DNA of 64,000 nt, taken from positions 64,001-128,000 of IMG/VR virus record IMGVR_UViG_3300045988_161245; one strand, given 5' to 3'. The position numbers and the translations under genes are program-made. Of this stretch, positions 22,293 through 61,755 are shown piece after piece (the first letter of the stretch is position 1; each line of letters begins with the position of its first letter). This stretch comes from a virus. A model generated the notes under the pieces. It saw only the letters and a list, made by a program, of their open reading frames with translations. It searched no databases and was not told the DNA's origin.

Positions 22293-22329
22293 CTACAACT
22301 CAATTTTTATTGAGTATAAAATTTTATTT

Positions 22330-22411
22330 GGATGGATAGCGAAGTGGTTAAACGCTCCTGACTGTAAATCAGGCGGCTCTGCCTTCGAAGGTTCGAATCC
22401 TTCTCCATCCA
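22330..22411 (+). tRNA. tRNA-Tyr (GTA), class II with long variable arm
   Basis: Hand-folded. GGAUGGA acceptor, UAGCGAAGUGGUUAAACGC D arm typical of bacterial tRNA-Tyr, and anticodon loop CUGUAAA. Confidence 0.9.
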
Positions 22412-22509
22412 CTAAATAGGACTACTGTCCTATTCTATTATTCTTCTCTTTTCTTTGTATTTTTCATTTTCATGATTATTTCTCCAAGCTGGGCTTCGGT
22501 CCAGCGTCT

Positions 22510-22583
22510 TGGGATGTAGCTCAGTTTGGTAGAGCGCCTGATTTGGGGTCAGGAGGTCCAGGGTTCAAGTCCCTGTATTCCAA
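22510..22583 (+). tRNA. tRNA-Pro (TGG)
   Basis: Hand-folded. D arm GCUC-AGUUUGGUA-GAGC, anticodon loop UUUGGGG, T arm CAGGG-UUCAAGU-CCCUG. Confidence 0.9.
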
Positions 22584-36456: not shown

Positions 36457-36785
36457 CGAAACACCGTTACGGAAAATTCAGTGATATGCAAATGTCGGAA
36501 ATTAAGAAGACATTACGAGGTTCTATTTTTTTCTTATTACAATGTGCAGATCCTAATACTTCAAGTAAATACCCAGGTAAAGACGTAAATGAAATATTTC
36601 AGAATATTCAGTATGATTTAGATGGATTGAACAGCTTACTCTTCTACCCTGTCGAGTTAGTTCCTGTGATTGAATTATTGGAAGCTGCCAGAGTTACATA
36701 CAATAAGCCGGATTCTAAATTTGAGGATTATAGAAAACTCATTTTGGATGCCGGTGTTGCAGTGCTTAAAATAAAGGAGGATTGA
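36453..36785 (+). CDS. putative head-tail adaptor/closure protein
   Basis: 110-aa ORF overlapping its neighbours by 4 nt. Confidence 0.4.
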   Translation: MTKHRYGKFSDMQMSEIKKTLRGSIFFLLQCADPNTSSKYPGKDVNEIFQNIQYDLDGLNSLLFYPVELVPVIELLEAARVTYNKPDSKFEDYRKLILDAGVAVLKIKED

Positions 36786-45029: not shown

Positions 45030-46721
45030 ATGCCTAATGAAGATTTTAGTATAAAAACTGGTATAGAGGTTGATGATAGTAAAGTCAGCCAATTAAAAAG
45101 TATTGCTGATGAGCTTGAAAAAACAGCGAAAGCTTTACAGAAAATTAATAACGTAAAATTTAATGGTGATATTTTCTCTGGGTTGACAAATGCAGGAAAA
45201 AATATTCAAAACGTCACTAAAGAGATTGATAAATTACAGAAGTCTGCCAATGGTGCTGGAAAACCATTAAACAACATTGGAAAAGGCGCAGAAAGTATTG
45301 TTTCAGGAAACTCAACGCAGTTTACATTATTAGATTTAACTTCTATTGATGTAATTAAATCAAGTATGAGTGAAATTGCAGACTCTGCTCAGAATCTTAA
45401 AGAAGCATTAGGATCAGAAGTTACTTCCGGATTAATGACTCAGATTGATGCTATGTTGGCGAAAAAAGATGAGTTACAAAATCTTGCGAACATTTTGAAA
45501 AGCAATAAGGAAGATTTAAATAAGGCTGCGAAAGCAACTGGAAGTAGTAATAAGAAGTCTACAAATAACACATCGTCTTCCACTTCTACTAAAACCCCAA
45601 AATATGTAACTGACCAGTCTTATGTTGGTGATTATAAGACACTTGCAGATAATGAAGCTTTTGTTCATACTCTTAGTACGTTTAGACATAATACAACAGA
45701 AGCTCAAGCCGCCATAGAAGAACGAAATAAAGTTATGGCAAGAGTAAACGCAAAAACACCACAGAACACTTCTGAAATAAATGCAAAGCAGAGATTTGAT
45801 GATATTGATAAGACTATCACAGACAATCTTAGTAAATACGGAAATCGAATTCAGAGCGCCTATGATGCTTTCGACAAGATAAAAGTAGACAAAAGTGGCA
45901 TCGCTGGAATTGAAGATGTATTTAAATCCAGTGAAGAACAGATTAATAAATGGGCTACTGCTGTCGCAAAAGGCAAAATGGGCATTAGTGAATTTGAGAA
46001 GAAAGTCGGTGGATTAAGTGGATCTGTTGGTAGTATTGGTAAAATCATTGATCCTGCAAGTATCACAGATGCAAAAATGGAATTGGAAAGTTATCTGAAA
46101 GAACTTACTAATGTACAGGATATTACTTTTAGTGGATTTACAGAAAAGAATGGAATTGTTTCGCTAAAAGGTACATTTAAGGATAGTGCCGGTGAAGCGC
46201 AGACTTTAAGTGTCCAATTAAATACACTGAATGGACAGATTAAAAATCTTGGAACTTCTGTAAAACCTGTTGAAAGTGGACTAAGTAAATTCTTCTCAGG
46301 TTGGAAAGAAAAAATGGTAAACCTTGCCCAATATTTGACTTCATTCCAGGCAATGAATCAAGTTTGGAATACGTTCAAGCAAGGTTTAGAAATAGTTAAA
46401 GAATTTGATACTGCTCTTACAGAAATGCGAAAAGTATCAGATGAGCCAATCAGTAAGCTGAAAGAATTTCAGAAGGAAAGCTTTGATATGGCTAAGAGCG
46501 TTGGTACTACTGCTCTACAGATTCAGAACAGTACCGCCGATTTCCAGAGGCTCGGAGAATCATTCTCGGATGCCAAGCAGTCAGCTGTAAATGCTAATAA
46601 ATTATTAAATGTATCAGAGTTTGATAATATTGATGATGCAACTTCTGCGCTGATTTCTATGAAAGCTGCGTATAGCGAAGTTGCAGAGTCAGATTTGGTG
46701 GATAAGGTCAACCAAGTAGGT
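45030..46721 (+). CDS. tape measure protein, exon 1 (564 codons)
   Basis: Coiled-coil N-terminal part, then the start of the TP901-type TMP core (...FQKESFDMAKSVGTTALQIQNSTADFQRLG...DKVNQVG). ORF 45030..46772 runs on into the intron. Confidence 0.7.
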
Positions 46722-46853
46722 GTCAGTATTATGCCTAAACACATGGTAACATGTGGGGTTTTACCCTGTTGATAACTATATCGGTAAACGTCTAGCGATA
46801 GATAATACCGAGGTAAGATATTTTAGAATTATATTATGATTAAAGGAGAAGTT

Positions 46854-47027
46854 ATGAAAGATAGTAAATTATATTGTTGTTTTTCAGTTCCACTCAGAGA
46901 TTATTTGATTTCAAATGGTCTTAGGTATGAGGTGTGTGCAAAAAATCCAAATACAGATAATTTGATGTGGATTTTTATTCGAACAGAAAAGCTTAATTCT
47001 CTTTTAAAGCAATGGAGTAATAAATAA
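46854..47027 (+). CDS. small DUF5659-like protein (paralog 4), intron-encoded
   Basis: AAAGGAGAAG RBS. MKDSKLYCCFSVPLRDYLISNGLRYEVCAKNPNTDNLMWIFIRTEKLNSLL. Confidence 0.55.
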   Translation: MKDSKLYCCFSVPLRDYLISNGLRYEVCAKNPNTDNLMWIFIRTEKLNSLLKQWSNK

Positions 47028-47063
47028 TATTATTAATTTTTTAATGAAAGGTATGGATTTATT

Positions 47064-48377
47064 ATGGCAAGACCATCTAATAAAAGTTTTGGAACATGGT
47101 GTGAAGAAAATAATTTAACATATATGATTGATTTATGGGATAATAAATTAAATAAATGCTCACCATATGATATTGCTATGTCAACTGCACATAAGTACTA
47201 CTTTAAATGCAATAGAGGTATTCACGAAAGTGAATTAACATCAATATGCAATATTACTGGCGAAAAGCATTATAGAGTACATTGTAGAAAGTGCAATTCA
47301 TTTGGGCAATGGTGCATTGATAATTCTAAACAAGAATTATTGAATAGGTGGGATAAAAAATTAAATAATTTGGATCCGTTTGACGTTCCATATGGTTCTG
47401 GTAAAAAATATTGGTTTACATGTCCTGTAAATAATCCTAACCACCCAAGTGAACAAAAAATGTTATCTAATGTTGTTCGTCAATCAGGTTCACAAAGATG
47501 TTTAGGATGTGAATCATTTGGACAATGGTGTATTGATAATGTGGATAAAGATTTTATGACAAAATATTGGTCCGATAAAAATACTATTAATCCATTTACA
47601 TTTACATTTCGTTCAGATAGAAAAGTATATATTAAATGCCAGAAAACATCATATCATGACGATTATCTAATTTCTTGTGCTAATTTTGTAAAAGGAAAAA
47701 GATGTTCTTATTGCACTCCTAAAGGACCTACTAAAGTACATAAGTTTGACTCTGTTGGATATAAATTCCCAGATATTTTTAAAATATGGTCAAGTAAAAA
47801 TAAGTATACTCCTTATAATTATACTTTTAGATCGAATAAAAAAGTATTATTTGATTGTCCAAAACATGGTGAATATGAACGAAAAATATGTGATATGTAT
47901 TCATCCTATTTTAAGTGTCCAATGTGCGTACAAGAAGAATCAGCTTCTAAATTACAATATAAAGTAAATTTATATTTAGAATCTCTTGGGTATAAACCTC
48001 TTCACGAACATAATTGCAATCTTCTTCCAAGAAACCCACTAACAAATGCAATTCTTCCATATGATAATGAAATACCAGAATTAAAATTAATTATTGAAGT
48101 AAATGGTATGCAACATTATGAAATAAGTCAGTTTACAGTTTTGTCATCTATGTCGTCAGGAAAAACTCCAGAAGAATGTCTTCAGTATCAAGGAGAGAAA
48201 GATGATTATAAAAGACAATATGCTATAGAGCATGGATATTATTTCTTAGAAATACCATATTTTCTTGATATTGCTTCAGAACCATATAAATATGCAATTG
48301 ATATAGCAATTGATCAATGTAAAGAAAAAATAAGAAATTCTAAAATATCAACCGTAACGACTGCAGGATGTATGTAG
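47064..48377 (+). CDS. intron-encoded homing endonuclease, zinc-ribbon repeats plus Vsr/DUF559-like PD-(D/E)xK domain
   Basis: 437 aa. Repeated W(C/D)...N...P.D......K.YWF.C zinc-ribbon modules. C-terminal core LKLIIEVNGMQHYE...DDYKRQYAIEHGYYFLEIPY. Confidence 0.6.
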   Translation: MARPSNKSFGTWCEENNLTYMIDLWDNKLNKCSPYDIAMSTAHKYYFKCNRGIHESELTSICNITGEKHYRVHCRKCNSFGQWCIDNSKQELLNRWDKKLNNLDPFDVPYGSGKKYWFTCPVNNPNHPSEQKMLSNVVRQSGSQRCLGCESFGQWCIDNVDKDFMTKYWSDKNTINPFTFTFRSDRKVYIKCQKTSYHDDYLISCANFVKGKRCSYCTPKGPTKVHKFDSVGYKFPDIFKIWSSKNKYTPYNYTFRSNKKVLFDCPKHGEYERKICDMYSSYFKCPMCVQEESASKLQYKVNLYLESLGYKPLHEHNCNLLPRNPLTNAILPYDNEIPELKLIIEVNGMQHYEISQFTVLSSMSSGKTPEECLQYQGEKDDYKRQYAIEHGYYFLEIPYFLDIASEPYKYAIDIAIDQCKEKIRNSKISTVTTAGCM

Positions 48378-48544
48378 TAATATATGTGTTGAAGTTATCC
48401 GTCCTTATATTATAAGGATGTAATATACAGTCTGAACTCACGCAATAATCTAAATTTTATGAAACGTGAGACATAGGTAGAAATGCCTATGCGCCATACT
48501 AATTTTGTGTGGTTAGTAGAGCTTGTCTCGAAAGTAACAGCTTG

Positions 48545-49321
48545 AATAATTTTTCCATCTCCACCGATGGGTTAGCATCAGCATTACAAAGATCAGCATC
48601 TGCTCTTAAAACAGCAGGTAATAATATAGACGAAAGTATAGGATTAATTACGGCAGGCAACCAGGTTGTGCAGGACCCAGAATCCGTTGGTGCCGCAATG
48701 AGAACGATTGCTCTCCGTCTAACAGGAACAAGCGTTGCCGTTCAGCAATTGCAAGAACTTGGCGAAGAGACAGATGGTGTTGTAACAACTGTTTCTAAGC
48801 TTAGAGACGTAATTATGAGCGCAACAAAAGTCGCTTCTAATGGTTTTAAAGGTATAGATATTCTTGATAATAACGGAAACTACCGTTCAACGGCAAGTGT
48901 ATTACAGGATATAGCAGATATCTATAATGAGATCGAAGAAACCGATAAAAAGACCAAAAGTAACAATGTAAATCTTTTGCTTGAAACAATTGCCGGCAAA
49001 AACCGCGCAAATACAGCTGCTAGTATATTGCAGTCACCTGATATTTTAAGGGAAGCAATCGAGTCATCAAAAAATGCGAAAGGCTCGGCAGATCGTGAAA
49101 ATGAGACGTATTTATCTTCGTTAGAAGCTCATATCACCCAACTTCAAACACAGCTCCAAGAGCTTGCAACAGTAACTATCAACTCAGATATGTTTAAAGG
49201 CGTAATAGATACAGCAACCGCCTTTCTTAACATCGTAACTCAGATCCTGGATAAACTTCCACTGCTCTCAACAGCAATTGGTGGTCTTGCAGGATTTAAA
49301 CTTTCAAAAGCAGGTCTGGGT
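48545..49321 (+). CDS. tape measure protein, exon 2 (259 codons)
   Basis: Continuation of the TMP core (NNFSISTDGLASALQRSASALKTAGNNIDESIGLITAGNQVVQDPESVGAAMRTIALRLTG...). The ORF-track entry 48509..49354 includes intron sequence at both ends. Confidence 0.65.
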
Positions 49322-49733
49322 AAACAGCTTAACATAAAGTTAGTTTCAATTTAAAATTTTATCGTAGTTAAGATGCCCATTTGATATGCTGCTGTCATAA
49401 TCGCGACAGTTAGTATAGAACTTGTTCAAGATGGTGATTCGACACCTATTGACAGACCTTTAGCCTTAGAGCTATAAAGCCGAATATCGGAGGAAGCCGT
49501 AATCCACATCACTGTGGTACCTTAGTTCTGAAAATGAATGAAAGGGATATATTGAAGATGGTAGTTCCGACACGTTAGCAAGCACATATGTTTAAATTTA
49601 CAAAAGTGGATGATAAATTCACGAATAAAACGCAATTATAAAAGGAAGAAAGAAATAGAGAGTAGAAAGTTGCAGGTAACAACTCTCCACTCTCTTAAAA
49701 GACTAAAAGGAGATTACAAAAATATGAACTAAA

Positions 49734-49907
49734 CTATTTATTATTTTGGGTGTCATCCTTATAGAATTCTCCAGACATGTCAAATCCTTTCAGGAATCCA
49801 AAATGGATGTGAAAGTTTTTCATGTTCTTAGATGGTATTCTGCGGATTAGCGACCATAGGATTAATAATCCTACAAGAGTTAAAACGAATAGAAATACAT
49901 CTTCCAT
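49734..49907 (-). CDS. small single-pass membrane protein (57 aa, below the ORF-track cutoff)
   Basis: Hand translation gives MEDVFLFVLTLVGLLILWSLIRRIPSKNMKNFHIHFGFLKGFDMSGEFYKDDTQNNK, with a GGAAGGAGGTGAG RBS. Confidence 0.55.
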   Translation of the reverse strand: MEDVFLFVLTLVGLLILWSLIRRIPSKNMKNFHIHFGFLKGFDMSGEFYKDDTQNNK

Positions 49908-50364
49908 ATCTCACCTCCTTCCTGTACGAAAGTATCAAGAAAGAGATTTGATGTTGGGAGAATCCCATAGAAATGAATATAATATTTAGAGTACTTCATT
50001 TTAGACAATCTCATTTCTGGTACAAATTGCGTACCAATAATTCAATACTACATGACGACTGTCAGATATACTGTCGTGCAACGGATCATAATGTAGAACT
50101 GTGATCACAAGTATATCTGACTTTGATTGTAGTATAATTGTCTATTTTTGTAAATCCAGAACATATGTGTTTTCATGTAAAAGTGTAGTTTTACAGTTAA
50201 CGTGCGAGAGGCTGACAAAGCATATTATATGTGGCGTTACAACATATAGTATAATATACAGTCCAACCAGGGAAAGCCTGGGTAGCATGATGGATCGAAT
50301 AGTATGGATAGAACCGTGAGGTTACTACTCGCTTACTACCTGAAATGCACTAACTGCACATATT

Positions 50365-50395
50365 CACCACGGCTTGCAAACGTGGTGTTTTTATT
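50365..50395 (+). terminator. terminator-like hairpin (caccacg...cgtggtg + TTTTTATT)
   Basis: 7-bp GC-rich stem plus a T-run. If the intron model holds, this could instead be an intron peripheral helix. Confidence 0.45.
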
Positions 50396-50424
50396 ATTTT
50401 ATTGAAAAAGAAGGTGAATATTTT

Positions 50425-50616
50425 ATGTGTGTTAAAATTTTTGATCATATTTTTTTAATAAGTAATTATGAGGTTATAGATTATTATAATAATGAAGAGG
50501 TAAATAAATTACATAGCCAAATATTACTTTCACCTCAAGATATAAAGGAGTATTTTGAATGGCTCTTTATAAAAGGTAAACATTATTTTTGCGGTCATCC
50601 AGGAGGATTATTGTGA
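50425..50616 (+). CDS. small partner protein S1 (MxVKxFD family), convergent with and overlapping the peptidase gene
   Basis: 63 aa with an AAGGTGA RBS. Paralog of 61819..62037 (MCVKIFDHIFLISNYEV vs MYVKFFDCELFIDSHEI). Confidence 0.55.
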   Translation: MCVKIFDHIFLISNYEVIDYYNNEEVNKLHSQILLSPQDIKEYFEWLFIKGKHYFCGHPGGLL

Positions 50617-51150
50617 TCTTAAAACAACTGTATTAATATTTGTATTTACATTATTATTTACTTTTGCTCTATCATTTATTATTATTTTCATATCATTAAT
50701 AATGTTAGAAAAATCTTTTTGAGTATCTACAAATAAATCAAAGTCATAATCACCTATAGCCATATAATTTATCGGTAGTAATTTACTAATACGACATTGA
50801 TGTTTTTCAGTACCTATAAGATATATTTGTGGTATTTTACACTTATTAAATCCTACAATAAGTAAATGAATTCCATCATTTGATGCATGATTTTCTTCAT
50901 AATCTTTCACTTCTTTATATACGCATTCTACATCATTTGTGTCTAATAATATTGATTTAATTTCTAAATATATTTTTAGGCAATCAAAATCATTTTTACT
51001 ACCAGCATAAGCAATAACAACTTTATCACTAATTTGATAAATCTTATTCTCGTTTTCAGTAACTATATTACTGTTTTTATCAACGATTCTGGAATCACCG
51101 CACACAATGATATCATTATCTTTAGATATTGCAGCAATAACTAGACTCAT
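50608..51150 (-). CDS. HslV/proteasome-beta-like Ntn hydrolase with N-terminal Ser (copy 1)
   Basis: 180 aa with a GGAGGT RBS. MSLVIAAISKDNDIIVCGDSRIV...NKIYQISDKVVIAYAGSKNDFD aligns by eye to HslV TTIVSVRRNGHVVIAGDGQ...[23 protein letters not shown] (nucleophile, Asp and Lys positions conserved). Confidence 0.6.
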   Translation of the reverse strand: MSLVIAAISKDNDIIVCGDSRIVDKNSNIVTENENKIYQISDKVVIAYAGSKNDFDCLKIYLEIKSILLDTNDVECVYKEVKDYEENHASNDGIHLLIVGFNKCKIPQIYLIGTEKHQCRISKLLPINYMAIGDYDFDLFVDTQKDFSNIINDMKIIINDRAKVNNNVNTNINTVVLRSQ

Positions 51151-51189
51151 GTTATACCTCCAATTTTATATTTTAAATATGTTAAAAAA

Positions 51190-51621
51190 TCATTTAAATA
51201 TTCCATTGGCAATATCGGTAATAAATTTAGGATCAGTAACAGCTACTTTAGCAACTTCTACACATACTGCTGAGATCATATTTATAGAAGAAATACCTAC
51301 AGATTTTAATTTAGCTTTACTCTTCCTCCATATAGAGTCAGGTCTAATTGATTCTGCTAATTTATGTCCTTCGAATGTAACATCATAAATTTTACAGTTT
51401 TCATATTTATAGTTATCATCTATAGAATACGATCCTTCTAAGAATCTTCCGTCAAATAAGTTTTTCACACAATATTGTACATCCTCTTCAGTGTATTTGC
51501 CTGAAAAGTGATCCTTTATATCTTTTAACATAATCCGCTTGAAATCTCCATTAAGTTTCATATTATCTTGTTCTTCAATATATAAGAGTACATCTCTAAA
51601 ACAATCATAGTTTAATATCAT
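51190..51621 (-). CDS. DUF2513-like winged-helix protein
   Basis: The ATG at 51621 has a GGAGGATTGAAT RBS. MILNYDCFRDVLLYIEEQ... and DVTFEGHKLAESIRPDSIWRKSK match the DUF2513 pattern (..iL..iEe.., LTweGHeFLd.ir...vW.k.k), recalled from memory. Confidence 0.5.
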   Translation of the reverse strand: MILNYDCFRDVLLYIEEQDNMKLNGDFKRIMLKDIKDHFSGKYTEEDVQYCVKNLFDGRFLEGSYSIDDNYKYENCKIYDVTFEGHKLAESIRPDSIWRKSKAKLKSVGISSINMISAVCVEVAKVAVTDPKFITDIANGIFK

Positions 51622-51652
51622 ATTCAATCCTCCATAGAAAGGTCGTGAAAAT

Positions 51653-51922
51653 ATGTTGTGGTCAATTTCTGAGACAGAAAATATTGCAACAAAAATTATT
51701 AAATTGTTATACGAAAATAATTGTACTGATGAAGGTGATATTGAAACCACATTTACATTAGTACGAAATCATTTTAAGAATATGTCCATTGATGACATTA
51801 TTAAATTCGAAACAACTGGTAAGATGCCGGAAATTGACGTTCATGGTAATCTTACTCAAATTATAAAACAAGTTTCTAGTCAAATAGCTGATGAGTTTTT
51901 GGAAGAACATGGTATTAAATAG
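51653..51922 (+). CDS. hypothetical acidic protein
   Basis: 89-aa ORF that fills the gap between minus-strand genes, with an AAAGG RBS. Confidence 0.45.
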   Translation: MLWSISETENIATKIIKLLYENNCTDEGDIETTFTLVRNHFKNMSIDDIIKFETTGKMPEIDVHGNLTQIIKQVSSQIADEFLEEHGIK

Positions 51923-52077
51923 GTTGTTTTCCAGGTTTCCAAGAATACCAACAAGCTGCACACCTGTTCACGGTTTTATTACTTCCTAAGAAACCAGTTA
52001 TCAACGAGTAACCACGCTGTCCGGTAGTGATCTGAGTGCTTCCACAGCGAGGACAGTGAACAGTATTGGTTTTTGTA
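51915..52077 (-). pseudogene. start-less zinc-ribbon coding remnant
   Basis: Hand translation gives ...NTVHCPRCGSTQITTGQRGYSLITGFLGSNKTVNRCAACWYSWKPGKQPI*. Resembles the C-terminus of ORF 53006..53545 (RHCPKCNGTNFTPVRKKYGLFMGFATNKVELVCNNCGY). No ATG/GTG/TTG lies between the upstream in-frame stop and the motif. Confidence 0.4.
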
Positions 52078-52764
52078 TTAATTTGTATTAGGTTTATTAT
52101 ATTTTTCTATATGTTCCTTTATTGTAGTCTTGACTAAATTATGTAATTTAATTTGATAATTAAGCAATACATTATAATTATATTTTGTTGTTGACAAAAA
52201 ATATTCCGTTATCTCTATAAATAATGAACGAAACATATCTGGTACATACTTATAACTATAAACATATTCGATATTATGCTTTTTAAGTGATGTCAAATAT
52301 CCAACACAATAATATAAAAGTCTTTCGTCACAATATACCTCACCTTTTAAAATAGGATCATTTGGTAATATAAAACTCTCAGTTAAATTTACTATTCCTT
52401 TATCTACATATTTTTTATATGAGAAATTTTCTATTTTTAAATGTATATCCATTTCAACTTCTGAAGCGTGAACTTCAGAATATATGTACATTAATTTAAT
52501 AAAATCTTCAAGCGGATAATTTAATAACTGAGTAGAATCATATACATGTGTGAACTCGTGAAAGAAAATTCCTTTGTATATTTTTGATTCATCTAATTGT
52601 TTGTTAACTTTTAGTATATATTTTTGATTATACAATTCCAATGTATTGAATTGTGCGGCTGCACAATCTCTTTTGTCAACTTCAATATATTCTTGTATTT
52701 CTGGAATTTCATAATATAACTCGTTGTATTCCTTAAATATTTTATCAAGATACTCTTTGTTCAT
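52078..52764 (-). CDS. HExxH zinc metallopeptidase (ImmA/IrrE-like?)
   Basis: The ATG at 52764 has a GGAGAT RBS. GIFFHEFTHVYD contains HExxH, with a downstream Glu-rich YSEVHASEVE. Confidence 0.5.
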   Translation of the reverse strand: MNKEYLDKIFKEYNELYYEIPEIQEYIEVDKRDCAAAQFNTLELYNQKYILKVNKQLDESKIYKGIFFHEFTHVYDSTQLLNYPLEDFIKLMYIYSEVHASEVEMDIHLKIENFSYKKYVDKGIVNLTESFILPNDPILKGEVYCDERLLYYCVGYLTSLKKHNIEYVYSYKYVPDMFRSLFIEITEYFLSTTKYNYNVLLNYQIKLHNLVKTTIKEHIEKYNKPNTN

Positions 52765-52793
52765 TTTTATCTCCTGCATAGAAAGGAATTATT

Positions 52794-53000
52794 ATGATAA
52801 AAAACAAAATGCTAATTATTAGATTAAAACGTGATATATTATATCTAAAGTTTAAGAGTTTAAAAGTAGATATTAAGTTTGCAATTAAAAAAGTATATTA
52901 TAGAATTTTCGACAGCAAAAAGTACCAAAATCTCCTACAAACTCAAAAAGATATGCAAGAGATTTTGGATGCAATTGACGACAGAATGAACTGGGTGTAG
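52794..53000 (+). CDS. hypothetical basic small protein
   Basis: 68-aa ORF that exactly fills the gap between two minus-strand genes, with an AAAGGAA RBS. Confidence 0.4.
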   Translation: MIKNKMLIIRLKRDILYLKFKSLKVDIKFAIKKVYYRIFDSKKYQNLLQTQKDMQEILDAIDDRMNWV

Positions 53001-53005
53001 TAGCT

Positions 53006-53545
53006 TTAATTTTCAGCCTTCATTCTATAACCACAGTTGTTGCACACTAACTCCACTTTATTAGTAGCAAATCCCATGAATAGTCCATATTTCTTCCTAA
53101 CCGGTGTAAAGTTGGTGCCGTTACATTTTGGACAATGACGAGTGTTAACTTCCTGCTGTTTTGCATTTTGTTGTGCTAAATATTCATTGTATCTTTTATC
53201 TAATTCTTCTTCAGCCTTGGCATTTATAATGTTCATTTGATTAGTATATTTGATGATGTCATTTGTATATAAATCGAACATTGTTGCAACAAAACCAGGA
53301 TCATTATTACCATATTCACAGAAATTAAACATATCGTTAAAACTCATATTAGGAACTGGTGTTAATTTATTTCCACATCCAGGACATAAATCTAAACTTT
53401 CACCACTAAGAATACCTGCATAATCTTTAGGTTTATTTGAACTTATTGAAAACATAGATTTTGTGCGTCCTTGTGGTTGTTTAAGTTTATTTCCACTTTT
53501 TAAAATGCATTCTCTACAATAATATATAATCTTATTAGAACTCAT
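53006..53545 (-). CDS. triple zinc-ribbon protein
   Basis: 179 aa with a GGAGGTTGG RBS. CxxC pairs at YYCRECI, CPGCGNKL and CPKCNG...CNNCGY. Confidence 0.6.
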   Translation of the reverse strand: MSSNKIIYYCRECILKSGNKLKQPQGRTKSMFSISSNKPKDYAGILSGESLDLCPGCGNKLTPVPNMSFNDMFNFCEYGNNDPGFVATMFDLYTNDIIKYTNQMNIINAKAEEELDKRYNEYLAQQNAKQQEVNTRHCPKCNGTNFTPVRKKYGLFMGFATNKVELVCNNCGYRMKAEN

Positions 53546-53610
53546 ACGCCAACCTCCAAAATATAATATTATAATGCAAGTATAACATTATATTCTCCAA
53601 TATTCAATTG

Positions 53611-56600
53611 GTCTTTAACTACGATAAAGCAACAGGAAAAGTTGGAAGTAATAAAAATAATTTAGAAAATGCATTAACAGAAGTAAAAGATTTCTTTCTA
53701 AAAAAACAGGATATAGAAAAGCCATATACACTTAGCAAAGATGAATATTCATTTTTTGAGAGAATGAAAAAAGAGCTTTCTGATTCTCAGTTAAATGGAT
53801 CTGCGGAAGATTCTAAAGATGCAATGCTACAACTGGCAGAAGAAATTACAGGTGCAGATAGCTCATTGGTCAAATATATCCAAGACACAGATGTAGCGTC
53901 TGTTTCTCAAGTCGGTTTTGCTCAATCACAAAAAACAGTAATTCAAGGAACAACTAAATTTAGTGCTGTAATGAAAACGGCCGGTGGAGTAGCAAAATCA
54001 TTTGTAGCTACCCTTGGAAGTATGGCTGTAGCCGCCGCAGCAGCTTGGGCTATCGGTAAAGTAATTGAGGGTATTGATTATCTTTATCATTACGATGAAA
54101 ATATCATCAAAGCTGGACAGGAAGCAAAGGATTCCATTGACAGTACATTTAAAAGTTTCGAAGAAGGTAAGCAGTCTATCATGGACCTTGGCTCTTCATT
54201 TGGCAATCAGACAGAGCAGATAAAAAATACCGGTGATGCAATCGATCAAGTTGCCGAAAAATATGTAGAGCTTCGTAAGGGAGTAAATCAGAATACAAAC
54301 GAGAATGTATCATTATCTACAGACGAGTATCAGCAATATATTGATCTCAGTAGTAAGCTTGCCTCTCAGTTTCCTGGTCTGGTAGCAGGTTATGATAGTC
54401 AGGGAAATGCTGTATTAAATCTTGCTTCCAATGCAGATAAGGCTGCTGATAGTATTCGTAATTTATATGAAGCACAAGTTTCTTCTGCAAATGTTGATAT
54501 GGGGAAAAATCTACAAGCAACATATGATGGTGTTGTTACACAGACAAGTCAATATGCTGAGGATATCCAGAAAAAACGTGATGAGTTAGAACAATTAGAT
54601 ACTGATATTTCTGAGAACAAACGTAGTATTTTAACATATGGAAGTAACAATTTTGAAGTACAAGGGCTGTATGGTGATAAAGAAAATGTTATTACTGATG
54701 TTCTAAAAGAGAATGGACTGTATAAAGAAAATACAGGAGATGACGGAAGTATTTGGAACTTCTATGCCGAAGGTCTCGCTGATAAGTCAAAAAAAGAAAT
54801 AGATAGGATGAATGAACAGATTACAGCTGGTTTGGAATCCTATAACTTGTCACTAGAGACTCAAAGAAGCCAACTTCAGAGTGAAATTAACTCCTACGAT
54901 TTAATGATTGAAGATCAATGGCGTAGTATGGCACAATCTCTTGGAAACTATCTTCAGACATCAAAATCATTTAATGAACTTGATGATAGTCTTCAAAGTG
55001 CATTTCTTGCCAACATTTCAAACCTTGACTTAACTGCCTTAAATGATCCAGATGGTAAATACCAAGGACAGGTGCTTGATTTCTTGTATGGAGAATTCAT
55101 TGGACCAATGTCTCGGTTTAGTGCGGATGTACAAGAAAGTCTTGCAGATGCATTACAGATTGATCCTTCTAAATTGACTATTGATGAGTATAAGTCACAA
55201 GTTGATGAAGCATTTAATAAAGCATTTCCAAAGGAAGAAGATGCAGATAAACGAGATAGATTCAAAAACGCTTATGGAATTGATTCTTCTATTGAGGATA
55301 TGGAGGATAATGCATCTCGTCTCAAAGAAGCATATGCAGATTTTCCAAATGCCAGTGATTTTATTGACCATATGCAGACAGGTGATCTGTCAATTGCTGC
55401 ACAGTTAATTGATAATGGTTCAGTTGATATTGAGAAAGGCACAGATGGATTAGTTTCTGCCATTGAAAGATATAAGAAAACGGTAGCTGAAGCAAAATCT
55501 GATACAACTCTTGCTTCTGTTCTTGGCGATTCCGATAATGAAATCTCATCTTCTATTGATTCTTTACAGTCAGATATTTCTTCTTTATCAGATACTCTTA
55601 CCAAGCTTAAAACAGGTGAGTTCAAAGATTCAGATCTCACCGACCTTATTCAACAGTTTCCACAGTTAGCCGATCAAACAGATAATCTTCAAGAAGCTAT
55701 CTCCAATCTTCAGGCAGATAAATTAAAGTCTACTTTGAAAAAAATTGACGATTCTATGGATGGAGCTTCTGATGAAGAGTTAGCTAATGCACAAAAATTA
55801 AAAGATTCTTTAATTAAGTCAGTTGACCTATCTGATATTAATTCAGACAAGATTACAGAATCAATCAAAAGTGCTTTTGAAGGTGATGGCGGAAGTAGGT
55901 ATATTGCTGCAGAACATGGAGCAAAAGCTGCTGAAGAATACAACCAAGCATTTTCAAAAGAACTTAAAAATAGTGCTGGACGAGAAGCTTTCTATAAGGC
56001 AACATTAAATCAAGATGCTGTAAAACAGGGACCTGATGCAATACGTGAATTATATAATCAGTATTTAAAGACAGCCAAAGACATCATCCAAGATACAGAT
56101 ATCCAATCACAGCTTACAAATTATCAGGATAAATACCAGTCACTCTATCAAGCTCAGAAAGATCTAAAGAACGGTCTAATGACTGGTTCTACCAAAAAGA
56201 CATTTCTGGACAAGTTTCCAGATCTTGCAAAGTATGCAGGAAACACTGAAACACTCTCTTCTGCTATTGATGATCTGATGGATTCTATGGACAGTGATGT
56301 AACTAACCAGTTTACAGATGCTATTAAAGCTCTTCAGGATGCCGGACAGTATGCAGATGCAAGTGCATTACAATCTTATGTTGAAGCTGTTTTAGATGGT
56401 GCCCATGATATCGAGGGTGCTTATCAGAAGATCGCAGGTCTTAAAATTCCTACACCTAAGTACGCAGAACTTAAAGAAGCTCTTGAATCTTCAAACGAGG
56501 GTGATCTTTACAATGAACTTCTCTCTCAGTATAAAACCGCAAAAGAGGCATGGGAAAAAGGTGAAGTTGGTACAGATGACTTTAAGTCTTTTGCTTCTAT

Positions 56601-59600
56601 TATTTCTCCTACAGGTGTATCTGATGCAGTAAACTTTGGTGAGAATCAAGCAATGTTTGAAAGATACTTCCAGGATACATCTACTGGTGTTGAGAACTTC
56701 TTAGAAGATCTACAGAAGCTTGACCTTGCTTCTAATGAAAGTGGTCATTGGACCAGTACATTAGGAAATAACCTTGATGAAATGCGAGACGCTGCACAGA
56801 GACTTAATATGGGCTTTGAACCATTTATGATGATGTTTGGTCGTCTCGAAGATTATGGTGCTACTACTGACTTCTTCACTACGGAAGAGGATGGGCAACA
56901 GCATTTATCTGATCTCTATCAGCAGATTGCAGAAAAGAAACAAAAACTTGCAGAAATTAAAGCAGATCCGGATTTAGCTGGCGATCAGTCTGCTATTGAT
57001 TCTCTCAATAAAGATTTAGATGAACTTTATGCGAGAGTAGAAAATACAAAAACTGGAATTGAAGAGCTTCCGGACAAAGCAACTTATTATGAAGCAAAGA
57101 ATCTCGAACAGGCTAAATCAGTTATCACTCAGATGCAGGACGAAATTAATCAGGCAGCTGCAGAAGGAAATGATGAATTAGTCAAAATTCTTGAAAAGAC
57201 TCGTGATCAATATTTAAAAGAAAACGGATATATTCTTAAAGAACAGCCACAAGGTCCAACTCAGCAAGGGACTATTGAAAATCCGTTAGCAAGAGAATTC
57301 ACAAATCCAACTAAATTTGGCGATTATGAGACAGTCATCAAGAAGATTCAGAATGCGACAGATGAACAGACATCTTCTCTTGAGAAAAATCTTAAAGTAT
57401 TAAGCCAATATTCTGAATCTCAGCTCAGTGGAATCAATTTATCCGATGGACAGTATGATACCGGTTTTGAGGATGCCGAACAAGCACTTGACAACCTTTC
57501 TAGCACATTTGGTCTTACAAAAGATCAAGCGGTACAGTTAGCAGCTGTTCTTTCTGATATGGGGCTGATTAAAGCAACTCCTAAAGTTGACTTAACTACA
57601 GTTCAGGATCAGATTGATAATGCAAAAGATGAGTTACAGGATAGTAATATTACTGTTGATTTAGATTTTGATATTTCTACTTCTAGTAAAGAAGAACTTC
57701 AAAAAAAGAGTCAAGAAATTCAGAATGAGCTGAATAATAACGCATCTCTTTCTGATTCTCAAAGAACATCTTTACAGGGAGTAAAAGATTCTGTTGATAA
57801 CCAGGTTGTTACGCTTACAGTACAGGAAAAAGTTGAAAAAGATGGTGATGTAGACGAGCTTCTTGCAATGGATGATCAAACACTTGCCACAACACTTGAC
57901 CTTGATGTTAATAATGCTGACCAATTATCAACAGCTAGGGATGAGCTACAATATATTAAAGACAATCAAGATGCTCAAATTGATATGACTGTTAAACTGG
58001 ATGAGACACAGTTTAATCAGCTATTAGGTGACGGTGAGAACGCTTCTATTGATGTTACAGCAAACAATGAAGAAGCAAAAGAAAAGATAGATGAAGCTAA
58101 GAACTATGCAGAAAGTCAGAAACCTCAAATGAAAATTGATGGCAACAATGATCCTGCTATCAATAAAGGTACTTCTGCTACTCAGATGATCAACAACATG
58201 ACTGGAATTATTAAGGTTAATGCTGACACATCGGGTATGGCAAGTGCTATTAATTCTGAATTGTCAAAGCCTCATACTATCAATATTTCCGCAAATGTGT
58301 CTACGCATGTTAGTGGTGGAACAGGTAAATCTACAGGAACTATGATTAGTGTCGCTCATGCCGATGGAACTGCTTATAATGTTATCAATTATACTCCTGC
58401 TCACGCAAGCGGAAATGTAACACTTTCACATGATGAAACTGCTTTAGTTAACGAAGAAGGCATTGGCGCTGAATCAATTGTGCGTGATGGTAAATGGATG
58501 ATTATTCCTGGTGGTGCCCATTTTGAAAATCTAAAAAAAGGTGACTTAATCTTCAATAAAAAGCAGACATCCGAGCTTATCAATTCAGGACATGTTACAT
58601 CTGGAGGTGGACATGCTAGAGCTTATGCAAATGGTACTGTTGGTGCTTATGCAGGAGGTAATTCTGGTGTTTATTTAAACTGGGATAAAAATCGTACTCA
58701 AGTTGGCAATCAGTCAACATCATCTCCCTCTAATTCCACAATTACCGATAAAAATACAACTTCTGTTAAGAAAAATACAGACACCGTAAATGACAATACC
58801 GAAAAGATAAAAAAATCTACTAAGGTATATGACTGGGTAGAAACTCGTATTAAGCATTGGTCTGATCAGGTTCAAAAAATCGCTGATAAAATCACCGACT
58901 ATATTAAGAAATCACTTAAAACATCTTTGCTCAAACAGCAAATTCGTAAGATGAACTATGAGATTGGTTCAAATGAAAAGGGTGCAAAAGCCTATATGAA
59001 AAAGGCTAACTCTATAGCAAACGAGTACACTTATTACAATAGTGATGGCGAAGAAATTAAAACCAATGTACCAAAGAAATATCAGAAGCTTGTCCAAACA
59101 GGTGCTTATCGTATTGAAGATATGGACACTTCAACAGATCAGGGTAAGGCTCTGGCAGAGGCTATCGATCAGTATAAGACATATTATGACAAAGCACAGG
59201 ATTGTAAACAGGCTGTTGTTGATCTGAAAAAAGAGCAGCTGGAATTGTTTGAACAGTGGGCAAATATGCCAACTGAAAAAGCAGAGCAGAAATTGGAACG
59301 TTTACAAAACGGATTTAATGGATTGAATGCAACTCAGTCAAGGTTATCTGCTGTTCAGACAGGTGGATCAACACAAAAAGCTATAGCAGACGCTGCTACT
59401 GCAAGTTACGAATCAGCACAGGTAGTTACAGAAAAAGCACAATCAAATCTTGACACAGCAACTGCGAAAGCAGATAAGGCAACTACAGCTGTAAATAGAA
59501 AGAAAAAAGCACTTCTTAAATCAAAAGGTCTTACGAATGAGCAGAAAAAAGCTATTAAATCCGGAAAGACTATTGATACCAGTAAGATTACTAACAAGAC

Positions 59601-61755
59601 TACGAAGAAACGTGCCGAAGAGTATAATTCTGCAGTTAAAAATAAAAAGAAAGCAGATTCTAAAAAGAAAACGGCTCAGACTAAATTTAACACTGCAAAT
59701 AAGAATTCTTCATCTCTTAAGACAGATGCAGAAACAGCAATCGCCGGATATCAGGAAGGAAACGAACTTTCCTATATGGATTCCTTAACTGATCAGAATG
59801 TGACACAGACAAAGCAAGCTGCAGATATTAACAACAAGGCTTGGGAGGAAACTAAGAAAAATCTTAACGCACAGGAGAAAGCCAAGAAACAAGCAGACGA
59901 TAAGGTTAGTAAAAAAGCTAAAGCTATTAAGAAAAAGTTTGGTAGTAAACTGAGTGATAATCAGAAAAAGAAATTAGCAGCAGGTAAAGAAATAAATGTC
60001 GATAAGATAAAAGACAAGTCTCTTAAAAAGGCTCTTACAGCATATAATAAATATGTTACTACTGCAGCCGAAACAGAACAGAAATTAAATATTGTCACAG
60101 ATGCAGAATCAACAGCGGCAGCTAATGCAGCGGAATCACAGACAGAAGCAGCTAAAGCCACAGTCGAAGCTATTCAAAGTAAATTTGATAATGCGAAGAC
60201 GTATTATGAAGGATTGTTAGGATATCAGGAAAAGTATAATGAAATGGAAGAAGCAAACATTGATTTATACAATGCTCATGGAAATTATGAGCGTTCTTCT
60301 GATTATGAGATTAAGATCTCAAATACTGAAAGTCTGAGAAATATTGCACAGGATAAAGTTGATGAGCTTGAGAAAAGATTTCAAGAAGGTGTTGATAATG
60401 GCACAATTGTAGAAGGATCTCAGGAATGGATTAATATGAAATCCGAGATTGTAGAAGCAAAAAAAGCTGTAACCGATTACGACACAAGTATTGAAAATCT
60501 GAAACAGCAACAAATTGGTGTTTATTATGAAGAACAGTTTGATCGTGCAATAGAGAAAATTGATCAGTTCAAGGACCGTATTGATATACTAAATGAAATC
60601 ATCTCTGATGATATGAAAGTTGATAAGAATACTGGACTACTTACAGAATTGGGAGCTACTTCTGTAATGTTGAATAGAAATCAGTTTTCTGCAAATCAGA
60701 AAGAAATACAAAAGCTTCTTGAAAAAGAAAATGATGTGAAAAAACGATACGCTAATGGCGAAGATATGTCTTCTGAATTTGGCGAAAAGACTTATGATGA
60801 ATATATAAAAGACATTCAGTCTAAATATAATTCTTTAATTTCATCAAATAGTTCTCTTCAAAATGATATGCTCTCTCTTGTCAAAAATCAGGCTCAAGCA
60901 GAACTTGATGCTCTTAATAAAGTAATATCTAAGCGTAAGGAAGCCCTTTCCGCAAAGAAAGACTATTACGATTACGATAAAACTTTAAAGGATAAGACTA
61001 AAGACATTCAGATCCTTGAACGTCAAGCGGCAGCTCTCCAGGGTTCAACAAACGCTGAAGATAAAGCACGTTTGGCAAAGATCCAGGAACAATTATCAGA
61101 TGCAAGAGAAGATCTTTCTGATACTATGACAGACCATGCTTTCAGTATGCAAAGTGATGCGCTTGATAAATTATCCTCAGATATGAGTGATGATTTTGAC
61201 AAATGGTCTAACGACATAAGCTCTAACGTAGAGAAAATGAGTAAAGCTATTAATGAAGCAGTTTCAAATTCTGCTCTTAGTAATGCGCAGGTTCTCAATA
61301 ATCTTTCTACTATTCTGAAAAATGTTGGATTAACAGATGAGCAGGTTAACTCTACATTATCAGGACTTACCGGTTATGCTTCCGGAACTGACTATGTTCC
61401 AAAATCTGGTATGTACAGAGTTAACGAAAATGGAATGGAATCTGTACTGTCAAGAAAATACGGTACTCTCACATTCTTAAATCAGGGCGATAAAGTATTT
61501 ACAGCAGACTTCACCAAGAGACTTATTGATAATGCAGGTATTGCCACACAGAGTAGTCAACCACAATTTGGCGAGATGTATAAGGAACTTATGAATGCGA
61601 TTACCAACACAAACAATCAGTCTTATGAACATAGTACAGTTTACAATATTGTTGTAAATGAAGCTACTGATGCAAACGCAGTAGGTGATATTGTCGTTAA
61701 GAAGATCGATGCATACGAAAAGAAGCGTGTAAGAGATTTTAAGAGTCTCAGATAA
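53611..61755 (+). CDS. tape measure protein, exon 3 (2714 codons)
   Basis: The giant ORF (track 53608..61755) has no RBS. It starts with a hydrophobic segment (LGSMAVAAAAAWAIG) that complements the one ending exon 2. It is dominated by coiled coil and carries a TMP C-terminal-type motif twice. Confidence 0.7.
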   Translation, partial: VFNYDKATGKVGSNKNNLENALTEVKDFFLKKQDIEKPYTLSKDEYSFFERMKKELSDSQLNGSAEDSKDAMLQLAEEITGADSSLVKYIQDTDVASVSQVGFAQSQKTVIQGTTKFSAVMKTAGGVAKSFVATLGSMAVAAAAAWAIGKVIEGIDYLYHYDENIIKAGQEAKDSIDSTFKSFEEGKQSIMDLGSSFGNQTEQIKNTGDAIDQVAEKYVELRKGVNQNTNENVSLSTDEYQQYIDLSSKLASQFPGLVAGYDSQGNAVLNLASNADKAADSIRNLYEAQVSSANVDMGKNLQATYDGVVTQTSQYAEDIQKKRDELEQLDTDISENKRSILTYGSNNFEVQGLYGDKENVITDVLKENGLYKENTGDDGSIWNFYAEGLADKSKKEIDRMNEQITAGLESYNLSLETQRSQLQSEINSYDLMIEDQWRSMAQSLGNYLQTSKSFNELDDSLQSAFLANISNLDLTALNDPDGKYQGQVLDFLYGEFIGPMSRFSADVQESLADALQIDPSKLTIDEYKSQVDEAFNKAFPKEEDADKRDRFKNAYGIDSSIEDMEDNASRLKEAYADFPNASDFIDHMQTGDLSIAAQLIDNGSVDIEKGTDGLVSAIERYKKTVAEAKSDTTLASVLGDSDNEISSSIDSLQSDISSLSDTLTKLKTGEFKDSDLTDLIQQFPQLADQTDNLQEAISNLQADKLKSTLKKIDDSMDGASDEELANAQKLKDSLIKSVDLSDINSDKITESIKSAFEGDGGSRYIAAEHGAKAAEEYNQAFSKELKNSAGREAFYKATLNQDAVKQGPDAIRELYNQYLKTAKDIIQDTDIQSQLTNYQDKYQSLYQAQKDLKNGLMTGSTKKTFLDKFPDLAKYAGNTETLSSAIDDLMDSMDSDVTNQFTDAIKALQDAGQYADASALQSYVEAVLDGAHDIEGAYQKIAGLKIPTPKYAELKEALESSNEGDLYNELLSQYKTAKEAWEKGEVGTDDFKSFASIISPTGVSDAVNFGENQAMFERYFQDTSTGVENFLEDLQKLDLASNESGHWTSTLGNNLDEMRDAAQRLNMGFEPFMMMFGRLEDYGATTDFFTTEEDGQQHLSDLYQQIAEKKQKLAEIKADPDLAGDQSAIDSLNKDLDELYARVENTKTGIEELPDKATYYEAKNLEQAKSVITQMQDEINQAAAEGNDELVKILEKTRDQYLKENGYILKEQPQGPTQQGTIENPLAREFTNPTKFGDYETVIKKIQNATDEQTSSLEKNLKVLSQYSESQLSGINLSDGQYDTGFEDAEQALDNLSSTFGLTKDQAVQLAAVLSDMGLIKATPKVDLTTVQDQIDNAKDELQDSNITVDLDFDISTSSKEELQKKSQEIQNELNNNASLSDSQRTSLQGVKDSVDNQVVTLTVQEKVEKDGDVDELLAMDDQTLATTLDLDVNNADQLSTARDELQYIKDNQDAQIDMTVKLDETQFNQLLGDGENASIDVTANNEEAKEKIDEAKNYAESQKPQMKIDGNNDPAINKGTSATQMINNMTGIIKVNADTSGMASAINSELSKPHTINISANVSTHVSGGTGKSTGTMISVAHADGTAYNVINYTPAHASGNVTLSHDETALVNEEGIGAESIVRDGKWMIIPGGAHFENLKKGDLIFNKKQTSELINSGHVTSGGGHARAYANGTVGAYAGGNSGVYLNWDKNRTQVGNQSTSSPSNSTITDKNTTSVKKNTDTVNDNTEKIKKSTKVYDWVETRIKHWSDQVQKIADKITDYIKKSLKTSLLKQQIRKMNYEIGSNEKGAKAYMKKANSIANEYTYYNSDGEEIKTNVPKKYQKLVQTGAYRIEDMDTSTDQGKALAEAIDQYKTYYDKAQDCKQAVVDLKKEQLELFEQWANMPTEKAEQKLERLQNGFNGLNATQSRLSAVQTGGSTQKAIADAATASYESAQVVTEKAQSNLDTATAKADKATTAVNRKKKALLKSKGLTNEQKKAIKSGKTIDTSKITNKTTKKRAEEYNSAVKNKKKADSKKKTAQTKFNTANKNSSSLKTDAETAIAGYQEGNELSYMDSLTDQNVTQTKQAADINNKAWEETKKNLNAQEKAKKQADDKVSKKAKAIKKKFGSKLSDNQKKKLAAGKEINVDKIKDKSLKKALTAYNKYVTTAAETEQKLNIVTDAESTAAANAAESQTEAAKATVEAIQSKFDNAKTYYEGLLGYQEKYNEMEEANIDLYNAHGNYERSSDYEIKISNTESLRNIAQDKVDELEKRFQEGVDNGTIVEGSQEWINMKSEIVEAKKAVTDYDTSIENLKQQQIGVYYEEQFDRAIEKIDQFKDRIDILNEIISDDMKVDKNTGLLTELGATSVMLNRNQFSANQKEIQKLLEKENDVKKRYANGEDMSSEFGEKTYDEYIKDIQSKYNSLISSNSSLQNDMLSLVKNQAQAELDALNKVISKRKEALSAKKDYYDYDKTLKDKTKDIQILERQAAALQGSTNAEDKARLAKIQEQLSDAREDLSDTMTDHAFSMQSDALDKLSSDMSDDFDKWSNDISSNVEKMSKAINEAVSNSALSNAQVLNNLSTILKNVGLTDEQVNSTLSGLTGYASGTDYVPKSGMYRVNENGMESVLSRKYGTLTFLNQGDKVFTADFTKRLIDNAGIATQSSQPQFGEMYKELMNAITNTNNQSYEHSTVYNIVVNEATDANAVGDIVVKKIDAYEKKRVRDFKSLR

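Follow-up and report, generated by a model that had tools for sequence, protein, structure and literature searches.

Prophages of the Bacillus cereus group carry group I introns (IVS1-3) at several positions of the tape-measure gene (PMC2504315). The prototype EDxHD homing endonuclease, I-Bth0305I, is encoded in a phage group I intron, where its open reading frame (ORF) interrupts P5 and the protein carries NUMOD2/helix-turn-helix motifs (PMC3239194). The IStrons CdISt1 and BcISt1 place kilobases of coding DNA between a 5' ribozyme and a remote 3' splice site and are removed as one intron (PMC4227781). Here, we analyzed a 64,000-nucleotide stretch of viral DNA (the window; positions 64,001 to 128,000 of IMG/VR record IMGVR_UViG_3300045988_161245) in which the tail tape-measure gene is interrupted. 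The first interruption, 46722-48544 (intron 1), is very probably a mobile group I intron in this gene of an SPbeta-like phage or prophage. A second interruption, 49322-53610 (intron 2), was missed by the initial annotation, which was made from the letters of the window alone; we infer that it is a larger group I intron whose ribozyme lies at the 5' end, far from the 3' splice site.

Intron 1 belongs to known kinds, as both tape-measure gene introns and Vsr-like homing endonucleases have already been published. Like the introns of the B. cereus-group prophages, it has alternative positions in the tape-measure gene, an apparent low-G+C Gram-positive host, and a presence/absence polymorphism (PMC2504315). 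Unlike them, it belongs to an SPbeta-like lineage from metagenomes and carries another type of endonuclease.

The boundaries of intron 1 were given by relatives that lack it. A search with the spliced core returned hundreds of relatives, and the contigs of several were fetched and labelled L001, L002, and so on. In L001-L004 (~80% DNA identity), the blastn high-scoring segment pairs break exactly at 46721|48545, and these two bases are neighbours in all four contigs. Six related contigs (L001-L006) lack 46722-48544 to the base and show the uninterrupted site ...AATCAAGTTGGT|AATAATTTTTCC...; the empty-site sequence of L001 is ...AATCAAGTTGGTAATAATTTTTCC.... Therefore, the insert is exactly 46722-48544 and represents an insertion/deletion polymorphism. 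Exon 1 ends in ...CAAGTAGGT at 46721 and the last base of the insert, 48544, is a G. Left unspliced, the exon 1 frame runs 17 codons into the insert and then meets a stop codon; removal of the insert is in frame and reads ...DKVNQVG|NNFSISTDGLASALQRSASA..., with NQVG|NNFSISTDG at the protein junction. The insert has a G+C content of 29%, compared with 35-40% in the exons. The exon allele before the splice site is GUAGGU where intron 1 is present and GUUGGU where the site is empty, and GUAGGU fits the guide of the intron. An intein was ruled out because the insert has stops in all frames, and a group II intron was ruled out because there were no Rfam domain hits.

In the predicted product, removal of 46722-48544 restores a continuous TP901-type tape-measure core, as the initial annotation had proposed. 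The spliced protein matches PF10145, the family suggested there as a check, in one stretch (positions 5-194 of 201, 57 bits, cut-off 33.2); exon 2 alone scores 36.5 bits, from profile position 87. TIGR01760 is matched over positions 17-340 of 349 (88.6 bits, cut-off 28.8), and with both families above their curated cut-offs the spliced protein is identified as a TP901-type tape-measure protein. The profile phrog_4211 also runs on across the junction: exon 1 leaves it at position 720, and exon 2 takes it up again at 722. Homologues with 87% and with 52-58% identity are continuous across the same point (e.g. ...DKINQVGNNFSISTDG...), and the tape-measure proteins of Enterocloster phage PMBT24 and of SPbeta (YomI) also align across it. 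At the DNA level, the locus had no match in 50,697 phage records by megablast.

Intron 1 is present or absent among close relatives, and it exists in several versions. The window type also occurs in L007-L009 (80% identity) and L012-L014 (94%). A second type occupies this site in L010 and L011; its 5' and 3' ends are unchanged, but its central core differs, as does its ORF (398 aa), which in L010 sits within the same ribozyme framework. At 46556|46557, 165 nt upstream, L001-L004 and L011 carry a group I intron that is a paralogue, and L011 holds introns at both sites; the window has no intron at this upstream position.

At the 5' splice site of intron 1, UAGGU (46717-46721) pairs with the guide GCCUA (46733-46737), 11 nt into the insert, to form P1 with the wobble pair U46721·G46733 at the splice site. 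This pairing is kept in five versions at the intron 1 site. The adjoining guide AUUAU (46728-32) pairs with AUAAU of exon 2 (48546-50) as P10; the L010 guide is AUUGU, and its pairing is kept via G·U. The other helices were built by comparison because the Rfam model RF00028 was silent at the insert; they were assigned by hand from the window type, the L010/L011 type, and the upstream-site intron, with some risk of fitting. P3 reads GAUAAC/GUUAUC in the window; L010/L011 have AGUAGC/GCUACU, and the L001/L011 intron at the upstream site has GACAGC/GCUGUC. It is perfectly paired in all three versions, with at least three double changes. For P4, L010 has ACGGU/ACCGU; the L001 intron at the upstream site has UCGGG/UCCGA and, for P5, GUCCA/UGGAU with a GAGA loop. 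P5 of L010/L011 has no assignment. P6, whose loop contains both intron 1 ORFs, is built from unrelated AU-rich sequence in L010 (AUAUGUAAUUAAUU/AAUUAAUUACAUAU) and in the L001 upstream-site intron (UAAAAUUU/AAAUUUUA). P7 is GACUG/CAGUC in the window, where CAGTC (48428-32) is contained in TAATATACAGTCTGAAC, GACCA/UAGUC in L010/L011, and GAGUA/UACUC in the L001 upstream-site intron (two double changes). P8, also predicted by RNAfold, is UCCUAU/AUAGGA, ACCCU/AGGGU, or AUCCU/AGGAU in other versions. P2.1 is longer in L010 and L011 (GGGAAU/AUUCCC), and the 30-nt segment between P7 and P3' (48364-93) is a clear hairpin of 9 bp in L010 and one of 7 bp with a GNRA loop in the L001 upstream-site intron. 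P3, P4, P5, P6, P7, and P8 are thus kept by compensatory changes in two other intron versions.

RNAfold alone gives P2, P2.1, P4, P5, P8, and P9-P9.2. The z score of the 5' part is -1.9; the 3' part has a minimum free energy of -41.6 kcal/mol and z = -4.0 compared with shuffles, and its hairpins (48438-69, 48472-91, and 48494-512) have G·U-compatible variants in L010 and L012. The initial annotation had already described the end of exon 1, the TAGGT/GCCTA pairing with its U·G at the splice site, the P7 pairing GACTG/CAGTC, the three hairpins after it, and the final G, and all of these are present. The group I assignment that it drew from P1 and P7 extends to the full core: taken together, the covarying helices, the U·G pair of P1, P10, and the terminal G support the view that the insert is a group I intron.

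In its layout, intron 1 resembles what we take to be the arrangement of T4 td and other phage IA2 introns: the order P7-P7.1-P3'-P8 is alike, the R and S elements (CCGUAACGACUG, AAUAUACAGUCUGAAC) are very similar, and an ORF in the P6 loop runs with its 3' end into the core. Here, the last 13 codons of the nuclease ORF overlap P6', J6/7, and P7. Intron 1 differs from td in having one clear hairpin between P7 and P3', two loop ORFs, and a Vsr-like rather than a GIY-YIG endonuclease. The IA2 label is a tentative one, given by helix layout.

Several points weigh against the group I assignment. RF00028, which the initial annotation had suggested as a check, gave no match on the insert, whole or in either half, at the gathering score or at E values up to 10. 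The model was also silent on compact introns of L012, L020, and L021, yet positive for two other introns of the window, and a survey of phage introns reports partial or one-sided RF00028 hits where a nuclease loop splits the intron (PMC11878797). In the window intron the P7.1 hairpin is weak, a single C·A mismatch interrupts P7 of the L010 type, and self-splicing, like the activity of the endonuclease, is something that we infer from the sequence.

The silence of RF00028, together with the annotation of exon 2 as an ORF of its own by gene callers in hundreds of contigs, would fit a free-standing homing-endonuclease cassette that leaves the gene in two separately translated pieces with no RNA splicing. 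We consider this explanation extremely unlikely, as the exon 2 starts that were called lie within the 3' end of the intron and differ between contigs, exon 2 has no conserved start at the junction, the junction falls in the middle of the TP901 core domain, and the ORFs are surrounded by a full group I core with covariation among three versions. It is also very improbable that intron 1 is a decaying or factor-dependent intron that self-splices poorly and whose carriers are defective or need a host protein, a phage protein, or the small intron ORF. The core is 80-94% identical, with compatible changes, in many independent contigs, some of them 100-540 kb long, and the endonuclease ORF is intact in all of these. 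On the other side stand the weak P7.1, the mismatched L010-type P7, the second small conserved ORF of the intron, and the observation that some phage introns splice only in vivo (PMC11878797).

The preferred explanation of 46722-48544 as a mobile group I intron receives further support from its larger ORF, which the initial annotation had called a Vsr-like nuclease of 437 aa. By Pfam, the protein has four PF14311 (DUF4379) treble-clef zinc fingers and no NUMOD, and its PHROG matches are to families whose annotation is homing or HNH endonuclease. In an exhaustive search, its C-terminal 150 residues were common to 473 cluster representatives whose N-terminal parts vary in length. Across 26 family members, E31, D50, E61, G64, H67, and K99 are invariant and D96 is nearly so. 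Sequence searches of the PDB, 3R3P included, returned nothing significant with either the single sequence or a 26-sequence profile. An AlphaFold2 model of the C-terminal 153 aa had a predicted local distance difference test score (pLDDT) of 92.8, and its best PDB matches in Foldseek were E. coli Vsr (1vsr and 1cw0; probability 1.0, template modelling score (TM) 0.57-0.65) and 3r3p, the structure of I-Bth0305I (probability 0.99-1.0, TMt 0.63-0.77). E31, D50, E61, H67, and D96 were tentatively mapped to D196, H213, and D222 of I-Bth0305I by motif position (YDNE...IEVNGxQH...D). Judging from the model, we describe the protein as a zinc-finger variant with the Vsr/I-Bth0305I nuclease fold, in agreement with the earlier claim. 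It shares with I-Bth0305I the location in a phage group I intron, the C-terminal Vsr fold, and, as far as the motif positions suggest, conserved acidic and histidine residues; it differs by its four PF14311 zinc fingers and an ORF placed in P6, and its sequence does not match 3R3P significantly. The same nuclease domain is found in the ORF of the upstream-site intron (E 2e-6), and the overlap of the L010 ORF with the nuclease is limited to the DN...LIIEVMG motif.

The small ORF of intron 1 was initially described as DUF5659-like. The ORF itself is present and matches phrog_21297 (8e-14), but the DUF5659 match is weak and below the Pfam cut-off (E 0.0058). It is kept in L007 and L012 and missing from the L010-type intron.

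We propose that the late transcript would fold into a T4 td-like core in which P1 offers U46721·G46733 to an external guanosine, which would attack the 5' splice site. The terminal G48544 would then enter the P7 site, and exon 1 would be joined to exon 2, aligned by P10, to give ...NQVG|NNFS.... The endonuclease would presumably cut intron-less alleles near the insertion site in co-infecting relatives, with repair copying the intron in. Intron 1 matters mainly for annotation, as gene callers cut this tape-measure gene into pieces in hundreds of metagenomic contigs. In addition, the three intron versions are a small but clean set in which to follow covariation in a family of phage introns whose endonuclease is of the zinc-finger/Vsr type.

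Downstream of exon 2, the tape-measure gene appears to be interrupted again. All homologues of exon 2, down to 52% identity, end at the same place, and a 2,715-aa ORF at 53608 resumes phrog_4211 at position 945, exon 2 having stopped at 942. Residues 759-896 of SPbeta YomI align to residues 176-329 of this exon-3 ORF. Exon 2 is followed by ~1.05 kb of ORF-poor DNA, which is conserved like the exons and contains many compensatory changes. UGGGU (49317-21) pairs with GCCCA (49375-79) as P1 with a U·G, AAGAU (49370-74) pairs with GUCUU (53611-15) as P10, and 53610 is a terminal G. This P10 is extendable to 17-18 bp by AACUACGAUAAA (53617-28) with UUUAUCGUAGUU (49358-69). The predicted junction of exons 2 and 3 reads ...GGUCUGGGU|GUCUUUAAC... 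in the RNA and ...KAGLG|VFNYDK... in the protein, and with both introns removed, residues 8-1358 of the segment form one match to positions 498-1615 of phrog_4211 (264 bits). The gene model that we propose from these splice sites comprises 564 + 259 + 2,714 codons and would give a product of 3,537 aa.

A U·G in P1, an adjoining P10, a terminal G, and an in-frame junction are found in the window, L001/L005, L012, L020, and L021, and three of the four other lineages with intron 2 have different intron sequences. The exon sequence GUCGGU of L020 pairs with GCCGAC, and GUAGGU of L021 pairs with GCCUAC, each with the U·G. In both of these distant relatives, the guide directly before this pairing strand is GAAUAU; its complement, AUAUUC, occurs 2.6 kb (L020) and 3.8 kb (L021) downstream, where a G precedes it and its frame is that of the following tape-measure ORF. 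The intron 2 of L012, a compact one of different sequence, has the same properties, with an exon-3 start at 8411. Therefore, the guide covaries with the exon-3 start across lineages: AAGAU with (G/A)UCUU, GAAUAU with AUAUUC, and AUAGCAGA with UCUGCUAU.

The ribozyme core of intron 2 was approached with RNAalifold on seven variants, which gave 11 pairs with double changes, including P8 and P9 (CUGGG/CCCAG). Two candidate elements were discarded. CUUAAC/GUUAAG (49328-33/49367-72) has no U·G and, from the L020/L021 comparison, is a P1-extension hairpin rather than P1; ACGACUGUCAG (~50056) was rejected as the R element because GAUAG variants break the pairing and RNAalifold puts P7 at 50210-14. 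Long RNAduplex searches for a helix closing the cargo gave inconsistent results, and RF00028 found nothing relevant on 49250-54000, L012 5300-5800, or L020/L021.

The last conserved element of the ribozyme (50365-50392) is a hairpin, CACCACG/CGUGGUG, whose loop, GCUUGCAAA, is invariant; only some variants have a U-run after the hairpin. Within this loop, GCUUGCA has a 7-bp match to UGCAAGU in the motif TATAATGCAAGTATA (~53573-53587) just upstream of exon 3, and both are invariant. The motif TATAATGCAAGTATA overlaps a minus-strand promoter-like site (-35 TTGAAT, -10 TATACT).

Intron 2 contains six or seven unrelated genes, mostly antisense. The HEFTH motif of the 233-aa protein suggests a zinc metallopeptidase, and PADLOC matched none of the cargo to known defence families. 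The 57-aa hydrophobic ORF, a putative membrane protein, lies with a 17-bp terminator-like hairpin (49657-49695, minus strand), is called in relatives as a gene of 57-58 aa, and shows third-position-like variation. Both cargo content and span differ among relatives, the span from 2.6 to 7.2 kb as calculated from the predicted splice sites. In L020, 12703-13206 is a ToxN-family toxin gene (PF13958) in the intron 2 cargo and a candidate abortive-infection module.

The layout of intron 2 is like that of an IStron; unlike an IStron, its cargo holds no insertion sequence or homing endonuclease, and it is fixed at one site in a phage clade instead of being scattered. An IStron proper was ruled out, since Pfam found no transposase or TnpB in the cargo ORFs. 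The T4 sunY/nrdD intron presumably has the same order of 5' ribozyme, cargo, and remote 3' splice site. On balance, we slightly favor the view that intron 2 is a giant group I intron fixed at one tape-measure site across an SPbeta-like clade and containing a fast-changing accessory-gene island. The cargo could be expressed independently, for example from the prophage, by its own promoter- and terminator-like signals, and the late transcript would splice the island out, joining the exons in cis, or in trans if the terminator-like hairpin at ~50390 is used. No phage group I intron with an island of accessory genes turned up in full-text literature searches.

Four observations speak against splicing of intron 2. 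The helices placed are P1, P7, P8, J8/7, and P9, not P3-P6; no intron-2-less allele was found, the site being occupied in all relatives examined; the window-type exon 3 directly follows an NTG codon, from which independent translation is possible; and SPbeta YomI and the PHROG profile both lack ~90 residues that lie at the junction. The last three would also be expected if 49322-53610 does not splice and the N- and C-terminal parts of the tape-measure protein are two genes around an accessory island, the ribozyme-like RNA being a relic or having another role, e.g. in transcript processing. The window-type exon-3 ORF does start with TTG or ATG and has a conserved N terminus, M(I/V)FNYDK, and the hairpin and U-run at 50365-50392 are terminator-like. 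We nevertheless regard this two-gene arrangement as quite unlikely: even lineages whose introns are unrelated in sequence keep the guide and the exon-3 start complementary through covariation, no Shine-Dalgarno sequence was found before TTG 53608 in the window, L020 and L021 have 48 and 112 open exon-3 codons, respectively, without ATG, GTG, or TTG after the predicted 3' splice site, and conservation of the ribozyme is accompanied by compensatory changes.

The same hairpin at the end of the conserved ribozyme raises the possibility that intron 2 is spliced in trans. The transcript of exon 2 and the ribozyme would end at ~50390, exon 3 with a tail of ~30-60 nt would be a second transcript, and the two would be joined by the P10 of 17-18 bp. 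The great potential length of the window-type P10, the conservation of the motif TATAATGCAAGTATA 30-45 nt upstream of exon 3, and the promoter- and terminator-like sites of the intervening antisense genes are in agreement with this. However, the U-run is missing in L001, L002, and L004, P10 is just 6-10 bp in L020 and L021, the motif TATAATGCAAGTATA may equally be the -10 region of a minus-strand cargo promoter, and a literature search found no trans-splicing group I intron in bacteria or phages. Trans-splicing is thus conceivable but doubtful; if it does occur, we are aware of no earlier natural example among the group I introns of bacterial viruses.

With the upstream-site intron, intron 1, and the putative intron 2, this tape-measure gene can apparently hold three group I introns, so that one essential late gene would carry up to three of them, one seemingly sheltering a variable gene island. 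If intron 2 splices, such introns would let phages put accessory genes in essential genes at no cost, and the "split" tape-measure genes of SPbeta-like phages would be single genes of ~3,500 codons. The features of the locus are collected in Table 1.

Table 1. Features of the interrupted tape-measure locus. Positions are those of the window unless a contig is named; intron 2 and exon 3 follow the proposed gene model.
Feature	Position	Strand	Description
Tape-measure exon 1	45030..46721	+	564 codons; ORF; residues 348-563 match phrog_4211 498-720
Intron 1, group I, td-like, IA2-type layout	46722..48544	+	1,823 nt; boundaries from empty-site relatives
Intron 1 P2 and P2.1	46740..46766	+	P2 CACAUG/CAUGUG, loop GUAA; P2.1 GGG 46756-58/CCC 46764-66
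Intron 1 P3, 5' strand	46771..46776	+	GAUAAC, with GUUAUC 48394-48399, 1.6 kb apart
Intron 1 P4	46781..46811	+	UCGGU 46781-85/ACCGA 46807-11, enclosing P5
Intron 1 P5	inside P4	+	GUCUA 46790-94/UAGAU 46799-803, GCGA loop
Intron 1 P6, 5' strand	46812..46826	+	GGU-aa-GAUAUUUUAG, with CUAAAAUAUC-a-ACC 48340-48353; 10-bp perfect inner stem
Intron 1 small ORF	46854..47027	+	57 aa from ATG 46854, ribosome-binding site AAAGGAG; 63 aa from 46836
Intron 1 homing endonuclease gene (predicted)	47064..48377	+	437 aa; four PF14311 and C-terminal nuclease of modelled Vsr/EDxHD fold
Intron 1 P7 to J8/7	48359..48432	+	P7 GACUG 48359-63/CAGUC 48428-32; P7.1 region 48364-93; P3' 48394-99; P8 48402-18; J8/7 UGUAAUAUA
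Intron 1 P9 to 3' end	48438..48544	+	P9 48438-42/48465-69; P9.1 48472-77/48486-91; P9.2 48494-99/48507-12; terminal hairpin; G48544
Tape-measure exon 2	48545..49321	+	259 codons, ends ...KAGLG; phrog_4211 722-942; end set by intron 2 P1
Intron 2 (predicted)	49322..53610	+	4,289 nt; 5' ribozyme 49322-50387, cargo, short 3' tail
57-aa hydrophobic ORF	49734..49907	-	Inside ribozyme region; GGAGG ribosome-binding site
Intron 2 core (predicted)	50210..50281	+	P7 GGCUG 50210-14/CAGUC 50259-63; P8 ~50222-52; J8/7 AAUAUA; P9 CCAGG 50267-71/CCUGG 50277-81
Cargo ORF, 63 aa	50425..50616	+	
Cargo, proteasome-like	50608..51150	-	PF00227
Cargo, DUF2513	51190..51750	-	
Cargo, 233 aa	52078..52779	-	HEFTH (HExxH) motif; no Pfam or PADLOC family
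Cargo, 179 aa	53006..53545	-	Zinc-ribbon-like
Tape-measure exon 3	53611..61755	+	2,714 codons + stop, starts VFNYDK...; phrog_4211 945-1701
Upstream-site intron	L001 8466-9898; L011 1336-2764		~1,430 nt, 367-aa ORF
Intron 2 span (nt), predicted			L020 2,644; L012 3,073; L005 3,369; L021 3,817; L002 3,907; window 4,289; L003 and L004 4,985; L001 7,168

A mosaic breakpoint lies inside the gene in L012. This contig is 94% identical to the window through intron 1 into exon 2; from window position 48883 (L012 4902) the identity is ~72% and is lost near 49200, and past the breakpoint L012 has a different exon-2 end, its compact intron 2, and a different exon-3 start.

Elsewhere in the window, two RF00028-positive group I introns, 37354-37660 (82 bits) and 37700-37987 (73 bits), stand in tandem ~39 nt apart, with a putative micro-exon, between ORFs 36782-37462 and 37983-38750 of a structural-module gene (phrog_5251). 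A brute-force search under U/G end rules gave no in-frame junction for 37354-37987. Rfam identified four tRNA genes, at 15597-15670 and within 22204-22583. The tRNAs, a YomU-type tail tube in relatives, and the YomI-like tape-measure segments suggest that the host is of low G+C and that the phage or prophage is large and SPbeta-like. No relative turned up when one genome per species was searched for the host. The contigs on which relatives lie reach 541 kb.

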